Assembly (NCBI GenBank): GCA_035500505.1
Contig: DATJXE010000004.1
Location: 126,977 to 190,976, forward strand
Source of the DNA: Minisyncoccota bacterium
GTDB taxonomy: Bacteria; Patescibacteriota; Minisyncoccia; Phycocordibacterales; UBA2100
DNA: 64,000 bases
Direction: 5' to 3'
The position numbers and the translations under genes were made by a program. Shown piece after piece: positions 5,269 to 61,556 of the stretch. The notes beneath the pieces were generated by a model that saw only the letters and a list, made by a program, of their open reading frames with translations, did no database searches and was not told the DNA's origin. Every line of letters starts with the position of its first letter. Within the stretch, counting starts at the first letter, position 1.

Positions 5269-5740
5269 GTTGCGACTGACTTTTCAATATGTCGCGGATC
5301 TCGACCAACAGTTTTTCCTCGTTGGAGGTCGGCGGCGAAGGCGGCGTTTGGGCCTCCTGGTGCTGGAAACGCTTGATGACCCCTTGCAGCAATTTGAATA
5401 TCAAGAATATGGAGAGACCGACGATGAGGAAATTGATGGTCGCCTGGATGAGCGCGCCGTAGCCGATGACGAGCGCGGGAGTCGTTGTGCCGTTCACGGT
5501 CGTCGCCGATCGAATGGTATAGCCGAGCGCGCCGAAATTCACGTTCCCCGTCAAAAGGGAGATGAACGGCGTAATGATGTTGTTGACGAGCGAGTTGACG
5601 ATAGCGCCGAAGGAGCTGCCCAAGACGACACCTATCGCAAGCTGGATGGCGTTGCCCTTGGCGGCGAACGCCCAAAATTCGCTGAAAAAGCCGCCTATTT
5701 TATTTCCGACCCGTCTTTCCATGCTCATGAAATCGATCAT
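5243..5740 (-). CDS. mscL: large-conductance mechanosensitive channel
   Basis: GNAIQLAIGVVLGSSFGAIVNSLVNNIITP matches the MscL TM1 signature; 165 aa. Confidence 0.85.
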   Translation of the reverse strand: MIDFMSMERRVGNKIGGFFSEFWAFAAKGNAIQLAIGVVLGSSFGAIVNSLVNNIITPFISLLTGNVNFGALGYTIRSATTVNGTTTPALVIGYGALIQATINFLIVGLSIFLIFKLLQGVIKRFQHQEAQTPPSPPTSNEEKLLVEIRDILKSQSQQKTKNPGA

Positions 5741-5882
5741 ACCACGTAGGGACGACGCTTGCGCCCAGGCACTCTTTCCTATATATTGTGCGAGCCCGAC
5801 GTGGGCATTATTTATTACTATTCCGGTAACACTTCCCTGCCCTCAGTCACGGTAGCGTAAGCAGGATAGTCCGGAGCACACA

Positions 5883-51939: not shown

Positions 51940-53244
51940 TTAGTTGCGCGAGATGACGATGCGCGGTGCGCCGCCACTGTTCGTGATGGACATCGAGTCG
52001 CTCGTCGGGCGGTCGAAGCCCATGACCGGAAGCGCTTCGATGGTCGAGACTTTCGACGGAGCTTCGATGCGCGTTTCAACGACCGGGGCAACTTTCTTTT
52101 CGATCGTCACCGGAGTGAACGTGCGGCGAGGGATCATCGAGCCCGCGAAGAGTGCCATGCCGCCTTTGTAGTAGACCAAGAGGTAGCCGGCAGCAACCGC
52201 GAAGACCGCGAGCATCAGCCAGTACATCGTGTCACCAAGCGTGCCGAGGTCGAAGCCCGTGTACGGTATCTGCGAGAGCGAGACCGACGGATAGGCGTTG
52301 CCGACCGAAACGTAGGTGTTGCACGTCGCGCTCTGGCCGTTGTAACCGTAGACCGTGAGCACATAGCTCGTCGAGCCGTACGGGTGGACGCTCAAGCTTC
52401 CGCTCGGAGCGACGTTGCCGTAGCTCGAGAGCGTCGCCGAGGTCGCGCCGTAGCTCTGCCAGCTGAGGTAGGTGTACTGACCGTTCTGGATGGAGTTGGG
52501 CGAGGCGTAGATGGAGCACGAGACGTTCTGGTAGTTGTAGTACGTCGGATAGGTGTAATTGTAGTTGTACGGGTAGGTGTACGTCGGGTAAGTGTATTGC
52601 ACCGGGTAGTAGGTCGTCGGGACCTGCGCGATCGGGATGACCGTGGTGGTCGTGTTGGTGTTGCCGCTGTTGCTGATGTTCGTGTTGCAGCTTCCGCCCG
52701 TGCAAGTGTTGTACGTCGAGTTCGAGATAGGCGTTACGATCTGTTGCTGCTGCTGCTGCTGCTGTTGCTGTTGCTGCTGCTGTTGGACGACCGGAGCAGA
52801 GTAATAGCTGCGCGGTGCCGAGATCGCGAATGGAGTGGAATAACCGATCGAGTAGTTGTAGGTCGGGATGGAGTAGTTGTTGTAGCCGTAGCCAGTGTCT
52901 CCGTAGATCGGGTAGGTCTCCTCAGAGTACGTTACGCCGCCTTCCTCGACGCAAGTGTCGCAGCCGCTAAAATCGAGATAACCGCCGTTGTCGCCTGAGA
53001 TGTCCGCATAGCCGCCGTTGTCGCCGGAGAAGTCCAAGTATCCGCCGTTGTCGCCGGAAGTATCCACGTAGCCGCCGTTGTCGCCGGAGAAATCGAGGTA
53101 GCCGCCGTTGTCGCCGGAGAAGTCGATATACCCGCCGTCATCCTGGGCGTGCGCAAAAAGCGGAAGGGCAAGAGCGAAGCCGGAAAGGACCAAAGCTCCC
53201 GTCAAGAGGATAGAAAAGGCTTTCAAATTTAGCTGTGCGGACAT
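51940..53244 (-). CDS. type I membrane-anchored surface protein: 6x DNGGYxDxSG decapeptide repeats, poly-Q tract, Y/N-rich segment, beta domain, C-terminal TM
   Basis: Signal peptide AFSILLTGALVLSGFALALPLFAHA; repeats and low-complexity segments seen directly; TM YWLMLAVFAVAAGYLLVYY near C-terminus. Confidence 0.6.
   Translation of the reverse strand: MSAQLNLKAFSILLTGALVLSGFALALPLFAHAQDDGGYIDFSGDNGGYLDFSGDNGGYVDTSGDNGGYLDFSGDNGGYADISGDNGGYLDFSGCDTCVEEGGVTYSEETYPIYGDTGYGYNNYSIPTYNYSIGYSTPFAISAPRSYYSAPVVQQQQQQQQQQQQQQQIVTPISNSTYNTCTGGSCNTNISNSGNTNTTTTVIPIAQVPTTYYPVQYTYPTYTYPYNYNYTYPTYYNYQNVSCSIYASPNSIQNGQYTYLSWQSYGATSATLSSYGNVAPSGSLSVHPYGSTSYVLTVYGYNGQSATCNTYVSVGNAYPSVSLSQIPYTGFDLGTLGDTMYWLMLAVFAVAAGYLLVYYKGGMALFAGSMIPRRTFTPVTIEKKVAPVVETRIEAPSKVSTIEALPVMGFDRPTSDSMSITNSGGAPRIVISRN
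52741..52785 (-). repeat. CTG/TTG (CAG/CAA in coding strand) trinucleotide tract of about 15 units encoding poly-glutamine
   Basis: ctgttgctgctgctgctgctgctgttgctgttgctgctgctgttg. Confidence 0.85.
52966..53145 (-). repeat. six tandem 30-nt in-frame repeats (GCCGCCGTTGTCGCCGGAGAAGTCNAGGTA-like) encoding DNGGYxDxSG
   Basis: Visible periodicity in DNA and protein. Confidence 0.8.
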
Positions 53245-53383
53245 ATGCGTGGTGGTTTACTTGTAAATTAGTAATGCTTTTGTAAGACGTGAGAATTATA
53301 CTTACATTTTTCCTTATGTCAAGTATTGAGAATTTCGGGGGACGGGCCTTTTTTAGTGGCCCGCCCCTCGGAGTTTGAAGCGT

Positions 53384-53800
53384 CTACTGGCGCCACGCTT
53401 CGATCGTGTCGGAGTGACGCGGCTGCGGTTGCGGCTGCGTCGACGCCGGCGCCGGGGCGTTCGCCGGCGAGTTGTCGGCGTGCGGCACATAGCCGCGATC
53501 GCACAAGACGTGGGTGCGATAGTCGCCGCGGAACTTCTGCTCGGCCGTCATCGCCATCTTGGGCCCGCCAGTCGTATTCTTGACCTTGACGAGCTTGATG
53601 GCGCGCATCGGGCAGACTTTGCCGAAGCCGGGCGTCATCATGTTGGCGGTGATGGGAGCGCCGTTCCAGTCGCCGCCGGTGATGGTCCAGGTCTGGCCTT
53701 CGAACTCGAAGGTGTTGTTGGGATTGGACTGCGCCTGGGCGGCGTTGGCGGCAGTGAGCGCGGCGATGCAGATCGCCGAAGTAAGGAGGAACTTTTTCAT
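53384..53800 (-). CDS. secreted hypothetical protein with signal peptide
   Basis: MKKFLLTSAICIAALTAANAAQAQ signal; Pro/Gln-rich C-terminus. Confidence 0.5.
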   Translation of the reverse strand: MKKFLLTSAICIAALTAANAAQAQSNPNNTFEFEGQTWTITGGDWNGAPITANMMTPGFGKVCPMRAIKLVKVKNTTGGPKMAMTAEQKFRGDYRTHVLCDRGYVPHADNSPANAPAPASTQPQPQPRHSDTIEAWRQ

Positions 53801-54011
53801 CGGATTTCCCTTTGCAAAGGTCCCTCGGCTCACATCGAAGCTGATGTGCGAGGGCTGTATGGGCGCGAATTCTCGTGCACAGACAGCCCTCGCAAAGTAG
53901 ACGTTGAATCAAAGAACAACGGTTGAAAGCCGAACCAGCAGATTAGGATAATCCCTTGGCTTTGGCTATTAACCGCGACATTATATCACCCACAACTAGA
54001 TTGTCAAGTAT

Positions 54012-54050
54012 GTAAAACGACCCGGGCTATAGAGGCTCCGGGCCGTTTTC
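54012..54050 (-). terminator. candidate intrinsic terminator for 54072..54809
   Basis: Hairpin GGCCCGG...CCGGGTC with flanking T-rich runs on both strands. Confidence 0.35.
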
Positions 54051-54071
54051 TGCACGAAGCAGAATTAGACT

Positions 54072-54809
54072 TCAGCAGTCGGGCTCAATGGCGTAAATGG
54101 GCGCGCCATTGCTCATTTCGCCGACCTTGGTTCTGCTCTTGACTAAAGAGCAATCTTTTTCACCATTGCCAGCAATGTGCCCATCACCGGCATCGGCCGC
54201 CTTGTTGAACGTGAACCTGACTCCATTGCCGAGTGTCGCCATGGCGAGCACCGCAATGAGAAGTATCACGAGGATCACGATGACAACGCTCGCAGCCGAG
54301 CCGGGAACCGGCGGGGCAACGGGCGCAGGGATCGTCGGAGGCAGGGGTGCAGGCGGTGCGATTGCTCGCGCAGCCGTCACTTGCGTCCACGCCGGCCCAT
54401 GCTTGTGCGATTGGAACACCAGCAATGAGAGCCAGCTGAATACCAGGAGTACGATCAGTAAGTCCCTGGCATGGGGCACAGCGAGCAGATCAACGGTCTT
54501 GGGATCGTTTTGTTGCAGGCCGAGGAATACCCAGCCAGCAGTGAGCGTAATGACCAAGCACGCCGTTGCCGAAGCAAGGTAGCTCAACCAGTAAAGCGGC
54601 ATGTTGCCACCTTCGCCGAGTGCGGCATTCAGCAGTTCCAACGCGATATAGACGATCGCGATGTACATGCCATCCTGCACGAGTGAGATCGTCAGGCCAT
54701 AAGCGTTGATGTCCTTCAGACCGATGACGTAGTAGGTAGCCGCAGCCGCAGCCGTCGCGAAGACGACAACAGCGTCGAGCCACGTGATTGTAACGCGCAG
54801 CGGGTTCAT
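54072..54809 (-). CDS. polytopic membrane hypothetical protein
   Basis: AAGGAAG RBS before ATG 54809; 6+ TM helices; Pro/Ala-rich segment PPAPLPPTIPAPVAPPVPG. Confidence 0.5.
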   Translation of the reverse strand: MNPLRVTITWLDAVVVFATAAAAATYYVIGLKDINAYGLTISLVQDGMYIAIVYIALELLNAALGEGGNMPLYWLSYLASATACLVITLTAGWVFLGLQQNDPKTVDLLAVPHARDLLIVLLVFSWLSLLVFQSHKHGPAWTQVTAARAIAPPAPLPPTIPAPVAPPVPGSAASVVIVILVILLIAVLAMATLGNGVRFTFNKAADAGDGHIAGNGEKDCSLVKSRTKVGEMSNGAPIYAIEPDC

Positions 54810-54852
54810 GGTACTTCCTTTCGTTACCGTTGGAGTTGTTGGATTCGGGGTT

Positions 54853-55206
54853 TCAGGTTCGGGTTCGTCCGACGTGCTTGTTGCATATCCGACGAACCAG
54901 GCGAAAGGTACCGCCGATGCCAAGCATGATCAGCTTGACGGCGGCCACCGCTTCCGAAAAGAGTAATATCCGCTCGAAGTTGATGAACCTCGAGAATGTT
55001 TCGAAACGATCACCCCAATCCGGAGCGAACGTTTCGATCAGACTTCCGACGTGTTTGACCAGACCAAGATTGAGGTCCAGTCCATCGTTCAGCAATTTCG
55101 GCTTGAGGATAAATACAAGCACGAAACAAATTGCCGTAACAGTGAAGGCGCCCCCCTTGAAGAGGTGGTGCCTGCCTTGCTCCCACATGTATCGGTGCCA
55201 CCTCAT
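54853..55206 (-). CDS. membrane hypothetical protein (117 aa)
   Basis: Hydrophobic helices; immediately upstream of 54072..54809. Confidence 0.4.
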   Translation of the reverse strand: MRWHRYMWEQGRHHLFKGGAFTVTAICFVLVFILKPKLLNDGLDLNLGLVKHVGSLIETFAPDWGDRFETFSRFINFERILLFSEAVAAVKLIMLGIGGTFRLVRRICNKHVGRTRT

Positions 55207-55307
55207 GGCCCCTCCTTGATTTTGAATGAGCTCGCCTGCGCCGAAGCGCAGAGCGAACGAGCATAGTATAGTAAAAGTGGCCCCCTGTCAAGGGTTACCG
55301 GCTTTCT

Positions 55308-56519
55308 CTAGAGACTCCGGATCCGACTTGCGACAGTGTTAACATCGGAGCGCGTATACGCAGTGCCGAGCAACGAAGAAATATATCGCAAGATGGCATT
55401 CCAAAAGCCCCGTTCTCCTTGCGTGTTCATTTCGGCGTGATACTTGTCGTCCAACCAATGTTGCGCAAGTTCTTCGCTCACACCCGGATCGCTTCTATGC
55501 GCCCAGCGCGGGTCGGTCGAGAGAGTACGCAACGAGTTGTCAGAAGCCGCTGTGTCTTTCATGAGCTTCTCCATTTTCGTTTGTGCGTTTTTCAAACCGT
55601 CGTAGGCTTGCTTCGTTTCAATCGGCGCATTCGGCTGAAGCGCCTCGCGAGTGAGTACTGACCCAGCGACACCCTCCTGGAGGAATACTGTGCGCAGCGC
55701 GTTGCTGATCTCCGAAGTGTAGCGAAGCCTGTCGGCACCGTGTTTTCGATAGTTGTCGACGATAGCGGAAATACGGCCCAAATTCTGCTGAAAGCCAATC
55801 TGGTTTATGCCGGATTTTAGGTTCGACAACATTGAGTCTCTCCCCTGCATGCGCGCAGCAGCAGCCGATGTCAAAAGTTCTTTCCAGTCATCCCGGTCGA
55901 TCGCTTGCATGACAGTGCCTTTGTCGATGCCATATTTTTCCGCGGTGGAGAACAGCTCGCTCAGTGCTGTCCAATCCGATTTCGCGAAATTACGAGCTCC
56001 AGCCAAGCTGTTGACGATGGCGGCGTATCGTCCTGGGTCCTTGTACGCGTAAACCTTCAGCGCGCGGCCAACTCTGTCTTTTGCGCTCGAATCATCGAGG
56101 GCGAGAATACCGGCTATCTCCGATTCTCCGGGGTGGAGGGCTACCACTCGTGCGATGGTTTCTATGTCTTCGTCCGAGACGAACTTCTCTGCGGTCTTTA
56201 CTGCATCAAGGCCTCGCTGATACTTCCCCATGAGCGAAGGAAGTTCCTTTTGCTCTTCGAGCGAAAGTTCGACGGTCGGCGACGCGTCCGGGCTCTGCGC
56301 GATCAAGTTCAGTTTATTCGAGAGCGACATCAAACGCTGTTGACGCTCGACATCCGGGCGTACTGGCCCCGCAGCCGAAGTGATAGCTGATATGTTTCTA
56401 AGTTCCTCTTCAGCGATCGCCGCGAAGTTGAGTGATTTTTCTTTATCGTTTAAAAGATCTTTTATACCCAACGTTTTAGGCGCTTCCCGTACCGCGCTCC
56501 CGATGCGTTCCATCTTCAT
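55308..56519 (-). CDS. hypothetical protein (403 aa), predominantly helical
   Basis: Long ORF, no recognisable motif. Confidence 0.5.
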   Translation of the reverse strand: MKMERIGSAVREAPKTLGIKDLLNDKEKSLNFAAIAEEELRNISAITSAAGPVRPDVERQQRLMSLSNKLNLIAQSPDASPTVELSLEEQKELPSLMGKYQRGLDAVKTAEKFVSDEDIETIARVVALHPGESEIAGILALDDSSAKDRVGRALKVYAYKDPGRYAAIVNSLAGARNFAKSDWTALSELFSTAEKYGIDKGTVMQAIDRDDWKELLTSAAAARMQGRDSMLSNLKSGINQIGFQQNLGRISAIVDNYRKHGADRLRYTSEISNALRTVFLQEGVAGSVLTREALQPNAPIETKQAYDGLKNAQTKMEKLMKDTAASDNSLRTLSTDPRWAHRSDPGVSEELAQHWLDDKYHAEMNTQGERGFWNAILRYISSLLGTAYTRSDVNTVASRIRSL

Positions 56520-57184: not shown

Positions 57185-58042
57185 TCAGGCGGCCAGCTGT
57201 TCCGGAAGCTTCAACGGCTGTTCGAGCGAGAGACGCTCGAACCTCTTGAACATAGTGGGAAGAGCGCTCGAGGGCATCTCGTGCACTTCATGCCCCACTT
57301 TCGGCTTGCCGGTAAGCATCCACGCCTTGCCAAGGTGACGAACGAGAACGGCTTCGCTGTCCTTGCGCGAGAACCTGACACGGTAGAGACGGCTCGTCCA
57401 CAGGAACACGCCGCAGAAGATGTCGCCGACCCGCTCCTTCATCAGGGTCGCCATCTTCCTCTTCGAAAGTTTTGTGCCGTTCACGTCACCAAGGGGGAGC
57501 TTGTCTTCCTCCGTGATGTCCTCGGTACTTGCCGTATCGAGGAGCGTTGTCGCCCCACTATAAGCGACCGCACCGGAGATGAACATGTTGGCCTGGATGA
57601 GCTGCTTCGTTTCTTCGGTCGCGCCTTCCGGATGGCCCGACCAGATCTCGTAGTAGACCTCATTGTCTCTTTCCAACGGCATGGCACGGATGATTCCGGG
57701 CGCCATCTCGCGGAAAGTCGTGAAGTCAATGTATTGACGGGTCTGCCGTTTCTTCGATTGCTCCTCGGTGAACGTGAAGTTACGCACGGGGATGGTCTTG
57801 AAGTCGTCGCTTGGCTGGGTCGGGATAACGAGTCCGCCCGGCGACATCTTGAACCCCGGCCCAACATCTTCCATCGGAAGGTGTTGCCCGGGACCAAAGC
57901 CGATGCCCGCGACGACTTCCGTTTCGGTCTTCTCGGCAGTGCTGGAATAGCGCATTCCGCCGAAAAAGATACGGTCGTCGAGCTTGCCTTGGACCATGCG
58001 GGGACGACGGCCGGGGATGAAACGTGCTGCGTTGCATTCCAT
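57185..58042 (-). CDS. hypothetical protein (285 aa)
   Basis: AAGGAAGG RBS before ATG 58042; no recognisable motif. Confidence 0.5.
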   Translation of the reverse strand: MECNAARFIPGRRPRMVQGKLDDRIFFGGMRYSSTAEKTETEVVAGIGFGPGQHLPMEDVGPGFKMSPGGLVIPTQPSDDFKTIPVRNFTFTEEQSKKRQTRQYIDFTTFREMAPGIIRAMPLERDNEVYYEIWSGHPEGATEETKQLIQANMFISGAVAYSGATTLLDTASTEDITEEDKLPLGDVNGTKLSKRKMATLMKERVGDIFCGVFLWTSRLYRVRFSRKDSEAVLVRHLGKAWMLTGKPKVGHEVHEMPSSALPTMFKRFERLSLEQPLKLPEQLAA

Positions 58043-58211
58043 GACATACCTTCCTTTCCTATGGGTATGTGTTGCGAACTGGCGGATGCCAGAGTGCTCT
58101 CTGCACTGATGCGCAGTGTAGCATCAAATTACCCCTCTGTCAATAAATTCTAAAATAAAAAGGGCGCCGCGAACTTCGCGGCGCCCTGTCTTCGTTGAAC
58201 GGGGTCTCAAT

Positions 58212-58700
58212 TCAGCTGACCGGAACGGCCGTCCCGCCCAACACGCGAGTGTTGACGATGAGCATGATAAGGATGCTGCCGATCAATGAGCCGAGCATGG
58301 CGAAGAAGAGCACGCCGGCGATCGTCGCTCGGTCCCCGATTATGCCGAGATGAATTCGGTCGTACCAGACGATCAGCATCTCGGCGACAAGCGCCACCGA
58401 AATGAGCAAATCGAACACGACCGAGACCCAGCGATCCTTACGCACGACGGTGAGCGCGGCCGTGATCGGTTCGACGACTAGGTAGATCGTGACGATCCAG
58501 AGCACCGTGACCAGCGATGGTTCGTTGTCCGCGATCCAGAACTGGTAGATGATCCACGCGGCGAATAACACGCCGAGGAGCGAACTACACATGTTGGCCC
58601 CGATATGCATTCGGCGGTGGTGCAAGATTTCCCCGGTACGATGCAAAATGGTCTCGCGCGGAATTTGCGGGCTCGATTGAGGAACGGACGTATTGGACAT
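58212..58700 (-). CDS. membrane hypothetical protein (4-5 TM)
   Basis: GGAGG RBS before ATG 58700; hydrophobic helices. Confidence 0.5.
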   Translation of the reverse strand: MSNTSVPQSSPQIPRETILHRTGEILHHRRMHIGANMCSSLLGVLFAAWIIYQFWIADNEPSLVTVLWIVTIYLVVEPITAALTVVRKDRWVSVVFDLLISVALVAEMLIVWYDRIHLGIIGDRATIAGVLFFAMLGSLIGSILIMLIVNTRVLGGTAVPVS

Positions 58701-58769
58701 GGGTTCCTCCCTGTTGTCCGTTGGATACACTGGCGCAAGTAGTACTCCAAAATGAGTTCGCGTCAAGAA

Positions 58770-58812
58770 AACAAAGAAGGCACGCCAAGTGGGCGCGCCT
58801 TCTTAGATTTCG
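58770..58812 (-). terminator. intrinsic terminator for 58828..59184
   Basis: Minus-strand GAAGGCGCGCC-CACTT-GGCGTGCCTTC followed by TTTGTTTTCTT. Confidence 0.45.
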
Positions 58813-58827
58813 GACAGCGCTTGCGGT

Positions 58828-59184
58828 TTAGGGACAGATCCCCTGGACACAAACGCCGTACACGCGACGCCAGTAATTCCGAATGATACGGGTGCCGTAG
58901 CCGACGATGCCGTGATGATGCTGGATCATGCCGGCGCCGTAATACGATTGGCCGCCGTAGTAACCACGCTGAGCCGGACCACGGTATCCCCCGCCGCAGT
59001 ATGACGGCATGGGCCACCGGCCTTTGTTGGTGACAGCGAAGGTCCGACAGAGTTCCGCAGCTTGGGAACTGCCTGGAATTACGCCGGCAATACACGTGTC
59101 GTCGTTGCAATATGCCGAAGCCGGAGCAGAGAACGAGAGCGCGATGAAAGTGACGAGAGCGAGAGTGCATGCGAATTTCCGCAT
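58828..59184 (-). CDS. secreted 8-Cys, Gly/Tyr-rich small protein
   Basis: Signal MRKFACTLALVTFIALSFSAPASA; mature part YCNDDTC...CRTF...YCGGGYRG...GYYGGQSYYG...HHHG...GVCVQGICP. Confidence 0.5.
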   Translation of the reverse strand: MRKFACTLALVTFIALSFSAPASAYCNDDTCIAGVIPGSSQAAELCRTFAVTNKGRWPMPSYCGGGYRGPAQRGYYGGQSYYGAGMIQHHHGIVGYGTRIIRNYWRRVYGVCVQGICP

Positions 59185-59279
59185 CGGTAGTTCCTCGTGT
59201 CTTGCCACGGTTCCCGGGATGGGAGCCGTTGCTTAGGCTGCCGAGATTATACCTTTACATCTTGCACTCGTCAAGTGCT

Positions 59280-59816
59280 TTAGTACTTCCCTATCTTCAC
59301 GGGTGTGCCGATATCGACGGGAACGCCGATGGTGGTCGCGTAGGCGATGGTCACGGGTTGCGCGATGGTGGTTGGATAGCCGATGGAAACCGGTTGGGCG
59401 ATCTGCACAGGCTGCGCGATGGTGACGGGTTGCGCGATCTGTTTTGCGACCGCGATCTGCTTTCCGACGCCAATCTGTTTCGGTTGGCCGATGGTGACCG
59501 GCTGCGCTATCTGTTTGGGTTGCGCGATGGTCTTCGGCTGCGCGATCTGCTTAGGGACCCCGATCTGGGTCGGCTCTGCAATGGGGACGGCGTAGCCGAG
59601 AGGTACCGCCGTTGCGATGGGGGTCGCTTCGGCGATAGGAGCGGCGTAGGCGATCGGAGATGCATAGGCGATGGGCGAAGCTTCCGCGATCGGGGAGGCG
59701 AAAGCGATCGGGACAGCGTTCGCGATGGAGCAGCCGCAATCTTGCGCGTACGTGAGTGAGGCGCTCGCGGCGACGGCGATGATGAGTCCAGCGGTTATTT
59801 TTGTTTTCATGTGCAT
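59280..59816 (-). CDS. secreted protein composed of about 24 tandem hexapeptide repeats (x-x-I-[AG]-x-[AP])
   Basis: Signal peptide LIIAVAASASLTYAQDCGC; repeats SPIAEA/SPIAYA/KQIAQP/VTIAQP etc. Confidence 0.6.
   Translation of the reverse strand: MHMKTKITAGLIIAVAASASLTYAQDCGCSIANAVPIAFASPIAEASPIAYASPIAYAAPIAEATPIATAVPLGYAVPIAEPTQIGVPKQIAQPKTIAQPKQIAQPVTIGQPKQIGVGKQIAVAKQIAQPVTIAQPVQIAQPVSIGYPTTIAQPVTIAYATTIGVPVDIGTPVKIGKY
59290..59720 (-). repeat. 18-nt tandem repeat array (GCGATNGGNNNNGCNTAN-like on plus strand) underlying the hexapeptide repeats
   Basis: Visible 18-nt periodicity with gcgatggtg/gcgatctg variants. Confidence 0.8.
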
Positions 59817-59818
59817 AT

Positions 59819-60475
59819 TTATTTTGAAACGACGCCGACGAAGTGCGCCGTGAGGATGAAGCGCGCGCTGGTGCCGGTGAGCGTGTCGCAGGTCACGAGC
59901 GTGAGCTTCTGGCCTTGTGTCGGAGAGAGGTCGATGGAAGCCCCCGTTTGCGTGTCGGCTTTGACGACGGAGTCAACGCTGTAGAGATAGGCCTTGCCGT
60001 TCTGTCCATCGATCTCGATGGAAGCGCCCGGGTCAACATTGGGAATTTGGTTGAACGCCTGGAACATTTTGTTGGTGACGATGGGCAAGTGCGAGGAGTG
60101 CGCGAAGATGAGCACGTTGCCTTGCACACCGAGCTCTGCCGAGCTGACGTAGCGCGCGGGACCTTTGTTGAGGAGTGCGTCGAGCGCGTCGACGTCGGTC
60201 GTCGAAGGATTTTGTACCGGCAGGTCGATACCGACGGACGGGATCTTTATCTCGGCCGGAAGCGTACCTGCGGACGTGCTGTCGGAAACTGATGTGTCGC
60301 CGAGCTGAGGCAGAGATGAAAGCGCGACCGAGGGATCGTTGCATGTGTTGTCTATTTGGCACGGCACGAAGCCAACGGAGTCGGCCGCGCTCAACGTGAG
60401 CGCGAACATGACGACCGAGGTCGCAAGGAAAACAGCGGCCGGGGGCTTGGAATTTCGCGTAGATTCGGGGTTCAT
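59819..60475 (-). CDS. sortase-family transpeptidase
   Basis: N-terminal TM; catalytic-region motifs VLIFAHSSH (His) and LTLVTCD (Cys, TLxTC) plus downstream Arg. Confidence 0.7.
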   Translation of the reverse strand: MNPESTRNSKPPAAVFLATSVVMFALTLSAADSVGFVPCQIDNTCNDPSVALSSLPQLGDTSVSDSTSAGTLPAEIKIPSVGIDLPVQNPSTTDVDALDALLNKGPARYVSSAELGVQGNVLIFAHSSHLPIVTNKMFQAFNQIPNVDPGASIEIDGQNGKAYLYSVDSVVKADTQTGASIDLSPTQGQKLTLVTCDTLTGTSARFILTAHFVGVVSK

Positions 60476-60524
60476 ACGATGGCAGAATAATACATGATTA
60501 TATGCATTATGTCAATAGCATGGC

Positions 60525-61556
60525 TTGACAACTGGCGGTATGCGTGAGAGGATTCTGGCCACTATGGCGGAGGTAGAAGTATCCAAGACAACGACCACCG
60601 AAACGCGCAACGAAGGCCGCACGTCCAGTCTCTTGACCGACATCCTCACTATCGTCGGTTTTGCCATCCTTTTCATCATCATCATTTGGGGCTTCGTGCA
60701 TCTCGTCTCGCTTATCTACACTTCCCTCTCTTCGAAGTTCTCCAATACGGCGCCTTCGATAGAGGTCACTGCGCCCGCGCAAGCAACATCGGGGCAGCCG
60801 ATGACCATCTCGTGGACCTATTCGCCGAGCGTGCAGGGCAGCTACGCATTTTTGTACCAATGCGAGAACGGTCTCTCGTTCGACACGAAAGGTGCGACCT
60901 CCAGCGTCGCCGTTCCCTGCGGCGAAGCGTATACGGTTGGCAACGTGAATAATTCCCTCACGCTCACGCCTCTGCTTTCGAGCGCTTCCACCGCGACCGA
61001 CACTGTTTCCATCGTCTTTATTCCGAGCGGGACCGGTTCACAGGCACAGGGCGACGCGACCGTCGCGATCAGCGCGGCAGCCAAATCTGCTCCCGCAAAA
61101 ACGACCCCGGCGAAAACGACTTCCTCGGCGACCTACACGGCTCCGCAATATTCCGGACCCACGGACCTCTCCGTGCGCATCATCTCCGGCAACGTGGACG
61201 CGAGCGGTGCGGGTGTCGTTACGTTCGACATTGCCAACATCGGCGGCTCCGCTTCTGGCAGCTACTACTTCACGGCCCAGCTGCCGACCGCGCAGCCCTA
61301 CCCTTACCAATCGCCGCTCCAAGCCTCGCTTGAACCGGGCGGGCACGTGACGAGCACGCTTCGCTTCACCAGCGTACAATCCGGCGGCGGCACGTTCTCC
61401 GTCAGTATCCAAACGAACGACGCCAACAACGCCGACAACTACGCCTCGATGCAGCTCACCGCGCCGTACAACTACAACAACTATAATTACAACTACAGCT
61501 ACCCGTACAACTACCAATCTTCGCCGTACATCGTGTACCCGACGTATACGTACTAA
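60525..61556 (+). CDS. N-terminally anchored surface protein with two beta domains and an Asn/Tyr-rich C-terminus
   Basis: TM ILTIVGFAILFIIIIWGFVHLV; domain PMTISWTYSP...AFLYQC similar to the 51940..53244 protein; tail YNYNNYNYNYSYPYNYQSSPYIVYPTYTY. Confidence 0.5.
   Translation: MTTGGMRERILATMAEVEVSKTTTTETRNEGRTSSLLTDILTIVGFAILFIIIIWGFVHLVSLIYTSLSSKFSNTAPSIEVTAPAQATSGQPMTISWTYSPSVQGSYAFLYQCENGLSFDTKGATSSVAVPCGEAYTVGNVNNSLTLTPLLSSASTATDTVSIVFIPSGTGSQAQGDATVAISAAAKSAPAKTTPAKTTSSATYTAPQYSGPTDLSVRIISGNVDASGAGVVTFDIANIGGSASGSYYFTAQLPTAQPYPYQSPLQASLEPGGHVTSTLRFTSVQSGGGTFSVSIQTNDANNADNYASMQLTAPYNYNNYNYNYSYPYNYQSSPYIVYPTYTY

Follow-up and report, generated by a model that had tools for sequence, protein, structure and literature searches.

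The DNA analysed here is a 64,000-nucleotide stretch (hereafter the window) of a Minisyncoccota bacterium genome (assembly GCA_035500505.1, contig DATJXE010000004.1, positions 126,977 to 190,976). It is ordinary chromosome, carrying gyrA, gyrB, rpoB, rpoC, dnaE, SMC, dnaG, a class I tRNA synthetase gene and five tRNAs. On its minus strand lies a gene for a small secreted protein built almost wholly from tandem hexapeptides (the array gene), whose start is 2 nt after the stop codon of a sortase gene. The local order is gyrB (−), a 175-residue membrane protein (−), a 343-residue protein (+), the sortase (−), the array gene (−) and a 126-residue Cys-rich protein (−) (Table 1). The array protein represents an unannotated, sortase-linked family of secreted hexad-array proteins from Paceibacteria-type members of the Candidate Phyla Radiation (CPR), and it probably builds a rod-like structure at the cell surface.

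Table 1 Features of the array locus, in window coordinates (ORF, open reading frame)
Feature	Position	Strand	Basis or remark
Gene for the 178-residue secreted hexapeptide-array protein	59280..59816	−	ORF list and translation; stop codon 59280..59282
Signal peptide, residues 1–24 (MHMKTKITAGLIIAVAASASLTYA)	59745..59816	−	Predicted signal peptidase I cleavage after T-Y-A
QDCGCS, mature N-terminus with Cys-Gly-Cys motif	59727..59744	−	Identical in L002, L003, L018, L019 and L020
24 contiguous 18-nt (6-residue) units, I-[AG]-x-[PA]-[VKTS]-x	59295..59726	−	Register table, shuffle test, Tandem Repeats Finder
Half unit IGKY at the C-terminus, within the end motif [VL]KIGK(Y)	59283..59294	−	Motif comparison across the family
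196-residue antisense ORF overlapping the repeat	59169..59759	+	ORF list
Membrane-anchored sortase	59819..60475	−	Pfam PF04203, 2.3e-17, 63 bits against a cut-off of 26.6
343-residue membrane-anchored protein, CARDB-like, with Tyr/Asn-rich tail	60525..61556	+	Divergent from the sortase gene
Promoter-like site TTGACA-17-TATTAT, 5' of the sortase start	60487..60515	−	Consensus scan, 11/12 matches; pattern match only
Promoter-like site just after the array gene stop	59246..59274	−	Pattern match only
Small secreted Cys-, Gly- and Tyr-rich protein, 126 residues, downstream of the array gene	58828..59208	−	ORF list
Terminator-like hairpin after the Cys-rich gene	58774..58804	−	Pattern match only

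The first 30 residues of the array protein comprise the signal peptide and QDCGCS, followed by 24 hexads without gap or indel, then IGKY and the stop codon, so that the mature protein has 154 residues and its end reads IGTPVKIGKY. The 24 units have Ile (23) or Leu (1) at position 1 and Ala (17) or Gly (7) at position 2. Position 4 holds Pro in 13 units, Ala in 10 and Gly in one; at position 5 Val is found 10 times, Lys six, Thr four, Ser three and Ala once. Residues at positions 3 and 6 vary and are for the most part polar. The pattern is far above chance expectation: the protein has 25 in-register [ILV][AG] dipeptides, and 10,000 shuffled versions of its mature sequence averaged 3.3 and never exceeded 8. 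No second run of at least four such units occurs in the six frames of the window. Tandem Repeats Finder returned periods of 18, 36 and 54 nt with matches of 62–83%, hence the units have diverged in DNA and are not recent perfect copies; their mean DNA identity is 53%.

An initial annotation of this DNA had described about 24 tandem 18-nt repeats encoding x-x-I-[AG]-x-[AP], which is the present pattern shifted by two residues and is confirmed here; its coordinates, 59290–59720, place the repeat correctly and are off by about 5 nt. The three subtypes it listed are all present as blocks, namely SPIAxA (as SPIA(E/Y)A) in units 2–7, KQIAQP in units 10–16 and VTIAQP in units 17–21. It was also right to set aside a CRISPR array, since the 18-nt units are contiguous, lack spacers and lie inside a conserved ORF. 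An Rfam scan of the window returned tRNAs only.

The N-terminus has the layout of a signal peptide, with a positive n-region, a hydrophobic core and a small-x-small c-region (as read from the sequence), and AlphaFold2 modelled residues 3–22 as a helix. Signal peptides are present in every family member described below, ending in a small-x-small motif (xYA, AHA or VFA) and followed by an acidic residue or by Gln or Ser. The Cys-Gly-Cys motif that the initial annotation had placed after the signal peptide of a secreted protein proved to be conserved, as DCGC or DCSC recurs in eight relatives. DC[GS]C is confined to one clade (the window protein, L002, L003, L018–L020, P0001 and P0003/L008), in which QDCGCS is identical in L002, L003 and L018–L020, P0001 has DCGC and P0003/L008 has DCSC. 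The suggestion that the motif is a lipidation anchor did not hold: the residues before Cys27 are A-Q-D (G-D in P0001 and P0003), and Asp at −1 does not fit the lipobox [LVI][ASTVI][GAS]C. A lipobox is likewise absent from all other family members.

The array is a genuine minus-strand gene. Between the window and its orthologue L002, both of 178 residues, differences number 56, 51 and 105 at codon positions 1, 2 and 3, with 49 synonymous codon changes and a dN/dS of 0.28; the adjoining sortase gene gives 0.15 in the same comparison. The sense frame is uninterrupted in every relative. On the opposite strand, the window (159 codons) and L002 have long open frames, and the antisense frames of L001, L003 and L008 are broken. 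Because the codon evidence and the open frames favour the minus strand, the 196-residue antisense ORF is a shadow of the repeat. The array ORFs of the window, L002, L003, L009 and L010 are absent from a 15-billion-protein collection, and gene callers and annotation pipelines thus evidently miss or miscall the locus.

Relatives were sought by three independent routes: a word-indexed search, a HMMER scan, and contig scans anchored on the sortase or on the motif. The word-indexed search returned one homologue, P0001. This protein carries a signal peptide, DCGC and hexads of the form V-A-H-P-V-x, and its gene lies directly behind a sortase 54% identical to that of the window. Ten loci came from a sortase-anchored search of GTDB genomes; they belong to Paceibacterota, Kaiserbacteria, Parcubacteria and, for one locus and by its label, Saccharibacteria. 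The array gene is directly downstream in five of them and absent in four (L004, L005, L007 and L011), and in one the contig ends too early. The HMMER scan of 1.84 billion representatives produced 89 matches; the clear members among them (P0003, P0006, P0012, P0019 and P0039) share a build of small size, signal peptide, acidic Tyr-rich linker and array. A second word-indexed search with the family profile added one new member, P0091, and a motif-anchored metagenome scan aimed at the DCGC clade added L018, L019 and L020, each with a sortase upstream. The genomic contexts of P0006, P0012, P0019, P0039 and P0091 likewise show the sortase upstream. Homologues, whose absence together with predicted disorder the initial annotation had tied to a degenerate ORF, therefore exist. 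The family is nevertheless rare, and neither Pfam nor NCBIfam holds a model for it. In all 15 array loci with context the order is sortase then array gene, with a gap of 0–25 nt, so the linkage is invariable. The sortase gene invariably just upstream is the strongest clue at this locus, and one that the initial annotation missed.

Across the 209 units of the family, position 1 is Ile (60%) or Val (38%), 98% together, and position 2 is Gly (54%) or Ala (46%) without exception. Position 3 is typically His, Tyr, Thr, Ser or Gln, position 4 is Ala or Pro (39% each), and position 5 is Val (65%), Ala (10%), Thr (7%), Ser, Ile or Lys (4% each); positions 3 and 6 are polar and variable. The ends of the proteins also carry conserved elements. 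The window protein, L002, L003 and L018 end in KIGKY, P0003 in KIGK and L008 in NIGK, and outside [VL]KIGK(Y) the mature L002, L003 and P0003 proteins have no lysine. Four Cys-less members (P0006, P0019, P0039 and P0091) end in an amphipathic helix (LAQLKRQL...), modelled by AlphaFold2 at a predicted local distance difference test (pLDDT) score of 70–80, and L009 and P0012 have neither the Cys motif nor the helix. No family member has both Cys-x-Cys and the C-terminal helix, and the two could be alternative oligomerisation devices.

The repeat units evolve fast and in concert, by turnover within the gene. In DNA, identity between the window and L002 is 55% over positional units and 80% over the segment encoding the signal peptide and QDCGCS, and 20 of the 24 window units are closer to a paralogous unit in their own gene than to the positional orthologue in L002. 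Unit number varies among orthologues (23 in L018, 24 in the window and in L002, 25 in L003, 28 in L019) and is not limited to multiples of three. The internal expansions proposed from the subtype switches are borne out by these comparisons. Lys at position 5 forms a block in the window protein alone; L018, the protein closest to it, has Val at these sites.

The hexad resembles the code of left-handed β-helix (LbH) proteins. In LbH nomenclature, the conserved Ile corresponds to B3, the Ala/Gly to B4, and positions 3, 4, 5 and 6 to T1, T2, B1 (inward) and B2. All 24 window units follow the LbH pattern of [LIV] at B3 and [GAED] at B4 in perfect register, and B1 is small (Ser, Thr, Ala or Val) in 18 units and Lys in the other six; the family-wide figure is 86%, or about 90% if Ile is counted. 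Against the PDB, the family profile matched almost only LbH proteins, in the same register, including QdtC (3e-6), LpxD (6e-5), LpxA, GlmU and γ-carbonic anhydrases. The window protein reached none of the curated Hexapep or LbH cut-offs: PF00132 gave no match, PF25084 scored 19.3 bits against 54, and the NCBIfam LbH models NeuD, LpxD and LpxA stayed below threshold (TIGR03570 at 33.3 against 160.8; the LpxD and LpxA models at 17–25 against 207–242). The mature protein is hydrophobic (30% Ile, Val, Leu, Phe and Tyr) and nearly uncharged, which places it on the folded side of the charge-hydropathy boundary. The likeness to a left-handed β-helix noted in the initial annotation thus stands for the core positions and the PDB profile matches; canonical LbH membership is not supported, given the thresholds, the proline sites, the Lys at B1 and the strandless AlphaFold2 model described below. 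The window protein is accordingly not a demonstrable LbH family member and instead varies the hexapeptide-repeat theme. As a guess at its fold, a solenoid-like repeat has the best support.

We propose, with a probability of roughly 0.45, that the array protein is an exported, disulfide-stapled, solenoid-like oligomeric surface rod that is functionally tied to the sortase. The protein would be exported through Sec and its signal peptide cut after T-Y-A. Each hexad would then contribute one short strand and one turn to a repetitive β-solenoid-like rod, with Ile/Val at position 1 and the mostly Val residue at position 5 pointing inward, Ala/Gly at position 2 filling a sterically tight site, and positions 3 and 6 facing outward and free to vary. 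Several chains, most simply three, would make up the rod and be kept in register by inter-chain disulfides of the N-terminal Cys-x-Cys; in the Cys-less relatives the short C-terminal amphipathic helix may play the same role. The mutual exclusion of Cys pair and helix, the lack of a three-unit superperiod among equivalent hexads and the unit numbers that are not multiples of three hint at an oligomer. Placed at the cell surface, the protein would act as a structural or adhesive fibril. The array gene would be co-transcribed with that of the membrane-anchored sortase and the two products handled together. Lacking any LPXTG-type signal, the array protein is probably not the acyl donor of the sortase; if it is a partner at all, it could offer its conserved C-terminal lysines as the amine acceptor. 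A sortase is found in more than half of CPR genomes, and the extracytoplasmic disulfide machinery MdbA/VKOR in many (PMC6744442), which makes an extracellular disulfide at the Cys-x-Cys plausible. An intertwined trimer or other obligate oligomer is speculative; it would reconcile the failed monomer prediction, the equivalence of the hexads and the alternative terminal elements (Cys-x-Cys or helix).

Several results weigh against this proposal. A survey of 78 LbH-I structures found inner-rung proline almost exclusively at T1 and incompatible with B4 (bioRxiv 10.1101/2023.06.27.546660); all 21 prolines of the mature window protein lie at T2 (13) or B2 (8), where proline is near-absent in solved LbH-I structures, and the canonical LbH matches carry Asn, Gly or Asp at T2. 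Six nearly consecutive units place Lys at the inward position 5, which is hard to fit into a tight hydrophobic core. AlphaFold2, run on the window protein with a seven-sequence alignment, returned a pLDDT of 43 with no strands and no fold; one homologue was modelled as a low-confidence β-solenoid with periodic strands. A regular-expression and hydropathy scan of the mature regions of 12 family members found no LPXTG-like pentapeptide, no stop-transfer segment and no charged tail. The sortase and the CARDB-like protein also occur as a pair without the array gene (L004, L005, L007 and L011, with the CARDB-like protein undetected in L011), so the adjacency may mean co-expression only. Finally, the mutual exclusion of Cys motif and helix follows clade boundaries and therefore amounts to about two independent observations.

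The array may instead be a non-globular, Pro-rich hydrophobic polymer, a polyproline II (PPII)- or elastin-like spacer, brush or coacervating matrix in which the period-6 Ile provides a sticky or packing contact. We regard this as possible though unlikely. The absence of secondary structure in the AlphaFold2 model of the window protein suits such a chain, as do its composition (13.6% Pro and 18% Ala in the mature protein), the block of units in which Lys replaces Val at position 5, and the quick unit turnover with variable copy number that is typical of spacer-like repeats. Similar arrays with Pro at position 4 also precede toxin or enzyme domains in other secreted proteins, in which they would be stalks or linkers. 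However, with 30% bulky hydrophobics and almost no net charge the sequence falls on the folded side of the charge-hydropathy plot, its 2P+G is 0.34 where elastomeric compositions lie well above that value, and a homologue was modelled with periodic strands. Moreover, a register kept free of indels over 144 residues, with near-invariant Ile and Ala/Gly, speaks for a geometric constraint, which a flexible chain would lack. Related candidates were rejected on composition. The collagen-like periodicity raised in the initial annotation, or a PPII-bundle repeat, would have Gly at every third residue; the array lacks this, has 10 Gly in 154 residues and places a small residue once per six. A metal-binding His ladder as the conserved function was rejected for the lack of His in the mature window protein, and antifreeze-type Thr arrays for the presence of just two TT units.

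A canonical LpxA-like LbH, exported without a catalytic domain and with three hexads per 18-residue rung and about eight rungs per chain, is improbable. In its favour are Ile/Leu at B3 and Ala/Gly at B4 in 24/24 units, the mostly Ser/Thr/Ala/Val position 5, the PDB profile matches, which are nearly all to LbH proteins in the same register, the sub-threshold matches to NeuD, LpxD and LpxA, and the names 'isoleucine patch superfamily' or 'LpxA' given to relatives by IMG pipelines. Yet the array shows no three-unit periodicity: identity between units simply decays with distance, with neither an 18-residue (three-unit) nor a 12-residue superperiod. To this are added the 21/21 prolines at T2 or B2, the Lys at B1 in six units, the curated thresholds, none of which is reached, and the strandless model at pLDDT 43.

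A bolder version of the rod proposal is of similarly low probability. Here the array protein would be the building block of an extracellular CPR fibre not described before, an obligate oligomeric β-helix (an intertwined trimer, for example) with a new hexad geometry that has Pro at T2. The dedicated sortase encoded upstream would assemble it or attach it to the wall by a non-LPXTG chemistry, for example with the conserved C-terminal KIGK lysine as nucleophile.

Less probable still is that the array protein is a sortase substrate of a new kind, in which a non-LPXTG element (x-P-V-T|I-[AG] or the KIGK end) leads to cross-linking to the wall or to other proteins, or to cutting into hexapeptides. 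The sortase adjacency in 15/15 loci at 0–25 nt is consistent with this, some units read Q-P-V-T-I-A with the P-x-T skeleton of LPXTG, and several orthologues have no lysines besides the conserved C-terminal ones. Against it, Thr occupies position 6 in just 18% of family units, position 3 (the equivalent of 'L') is polar, no hydrophobic stop-transfer segment or charged tail would keep the protein at the membrane, and the sortase also occurs without the array gene. No mature family member contains [LIVM][PA]x[TS][GASN], and no ORF in the window encodes a credible LPXTG-type substrate. The lack of an LPXTG-like signal, stop-transfer segment and charged tail shows that the array proteins are not classical sortase substrates. 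The sequence is compatible both with a sortase that acts on the array protein, possibly with the terminal lysines as nucleophile, and with mere co-expression.

A spurious ORF, with the periodicity arising from non-coding tandem DNA or from the antisense ORF and the protein an artefact, is effectively refuted: for all that five genomes' array ORFs are missing from the large protein collection and that long antisense frames are open in two genomes, the codon-position bias and dN/dS belong to the minus-strand sense frame, which stays open in all relatives as antisense frames break in three, the signal peptide, Cys motif and C-terminal motif are kept in the protein at a DNA identity between units of about 55%, and ENA, JGI and Logan data hold relatives independently called as genes.

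The proposed surface rod can be set beside several known systems. LbH proteins (PF00132; LpxA, LpxD, GlmU, QdtC and γ-carbonic anhydrase) share with it an aliphatic B3, a small B4 and a mostly small or β-branched B1, whereas the array protein is exported, has no catalytic or flanking domain, runs through 24 hexads without loops, and carries Pro at T2/B2 rather than T1, Lys at B1 and Ala over Gly at B4. Gram-positive sortase substrates and pilins (LPXTG or LAXTG) likewise combine a signal peptide with an operon-like arrangement next to a PF04203 membrane-anchored sortase; in contrast to them, the array protein has no sorting signal or pentapeptide, no immunoglobulin (Ig)-like pilin domains and no pilin motif, and offers only its C-terminal KIGK. 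Streptomyces chaplins are reportedly small, secreted, hydrophobic two-Cys proteins of the surface layer that are functionally tied to class-E-type sortases. The array protein resembles them in being small, secreted and hydrophobic with two Cys, next to a sortase that is nearest to class E (below threshold). It differs in having a Pro-containing hexad array rather than one amyloid domain; a long, LAXTG-bearing version was not seen, and Pfam gave no chaplin match in the window protein at E-values up to 1. Bactofilins (DUF583), which are cytoplasmic triangular β-solenoids, show no sequence relationship to the array protein. The T4 gp5 needle and tailspike stalks are intertwined triple β-helix fibre shafts, and such phage-tail shafts use other repeat lengths. 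MyRF (PMC8326128) was considered together with these shafts. A new paper on the CPR Pam pilus describes Ig-like pilins unrelated to the array family, and literature searches on sortases with hexapeptides in CPR and on hexapeptide repeats in polymorphic toxins returned nothing on it.

Weaker profile matches revealed secreted proteins with [IV]-G-[RT]-P-[VA]-x arrays placed before other domains: a CDI-toxin EC869-like nuclease in P0009, a ribonuclease in P0016 and an alpha/beta hydrolase in P0008. These share with the array family a signal peptide and a hexad variant with Pro at position 4 (52% of their units), and differ in their C-terminal toxin or enzyme domains, a Gly-dominated position 2 and the lack of Cys-x-Cys. 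A phage family with unassigned function, phrog_5353, matched at 2e-13. These occurrences suggest a stalk module, built of proline-bearing hexads, that recurs in extracellular proteins. IMG labels P0009 and P0023 as LpxA and also uses 'isoleucine patch superfamily enzyme' for such proteins, which looks like motif-driven misannotation.

CPR bacteria (Patescibacteria) are thought to live attached to other cells, and their surface proteins are mostly unknown. The array family is a small, fast-evolving secreted repeat protein, tied to a sortase wherever context exists, without a family model and overlooked by gene callers. If it forms a surface rod, it would be a candidate attachment or envelope component of Paceibacteria, and its sortase would have a partner without any classical sorting signal. 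It also shows that the 'isoleucine patch' code of LbH proteins has an extracellular, proline-rich variant, found before toxin domains as well, that triggers a wrong 'LpxA' annotation.

The sortase of the window retains His126/129, Cys196 (LVTCD) and Arg205. Its nearest NCBIfam model is class E, below threshold, and its sequence is deposited as NCBI HTR18985.1, from a 'Candidatus Paceibacterota bacterium' metagenome-assembled genome. An extra Cys pair, PCQIDNTC, lies at residues 39–45 of the sortase, just outside the membrane anchor, and is kept in L018–L020. The L001 sortase lacks this pair, which therefore does not track the DCGC of the array protein. In L004 (Kaiserbacteria, without the array gene) a fragment at 5691..5801, about 1 kb downstream of the intact sortase, is 70% identical to sortase residues 177–213 and may be a remnant of a rearrangement there.

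On the other side of the sortase, the 343-residue protein has a Tyr/Asn/Pro-rich tail (NYNNYNYNYSYPYNY...). A homologue adjoins the sortase in 10 of 11 loci with upstream DNA (L002–L010 and L012; 36–60% identity by tblastn), including three of the four loci without the array gene; none was detected by tblastn in L011. The window protein has no Pfam match, and its L014 homologue has a weak match to PF07705 (CARDB). The 343-residue protein may be the sortase's real conserved partner. Since the pair of sortase and CARDB-like protein is kept across most loci, also without the array, the array gene is an accessory addition to it.

Downstream, the 126-residue Cys-rich protein has no family match in Pfam, NCBIfam or a further family scan. 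Cys-, Gly-, Tyr- and His-rich proteins of similar build (126–139 residues) follow the array gene in the window, in L003 (5294..5713) and in L009 (5347..5748), each with two Cys pairs, one (C-x5-6-C) close to the N-terminus and the other close to the C-terminus; tblastn detected no homology among the three. The Cys-rich gene may share a transcription unit with the array gene, and its product may be a third, fast-evolving member of the cassette.

Elsewhere in the window, three minus-strand ORFs of 434, 283 and 403 residues at 51940..56519, amid housekeeping genes, have no Pfam match at 1e-5. At 58161..58187, between the genes at 57185..58042 (−) and 58212..58766 (−), lies a GC-rich hairpin of 12 perfect base pairs, flanked on each side by a T-run, that resembles a bidirectional terminator.

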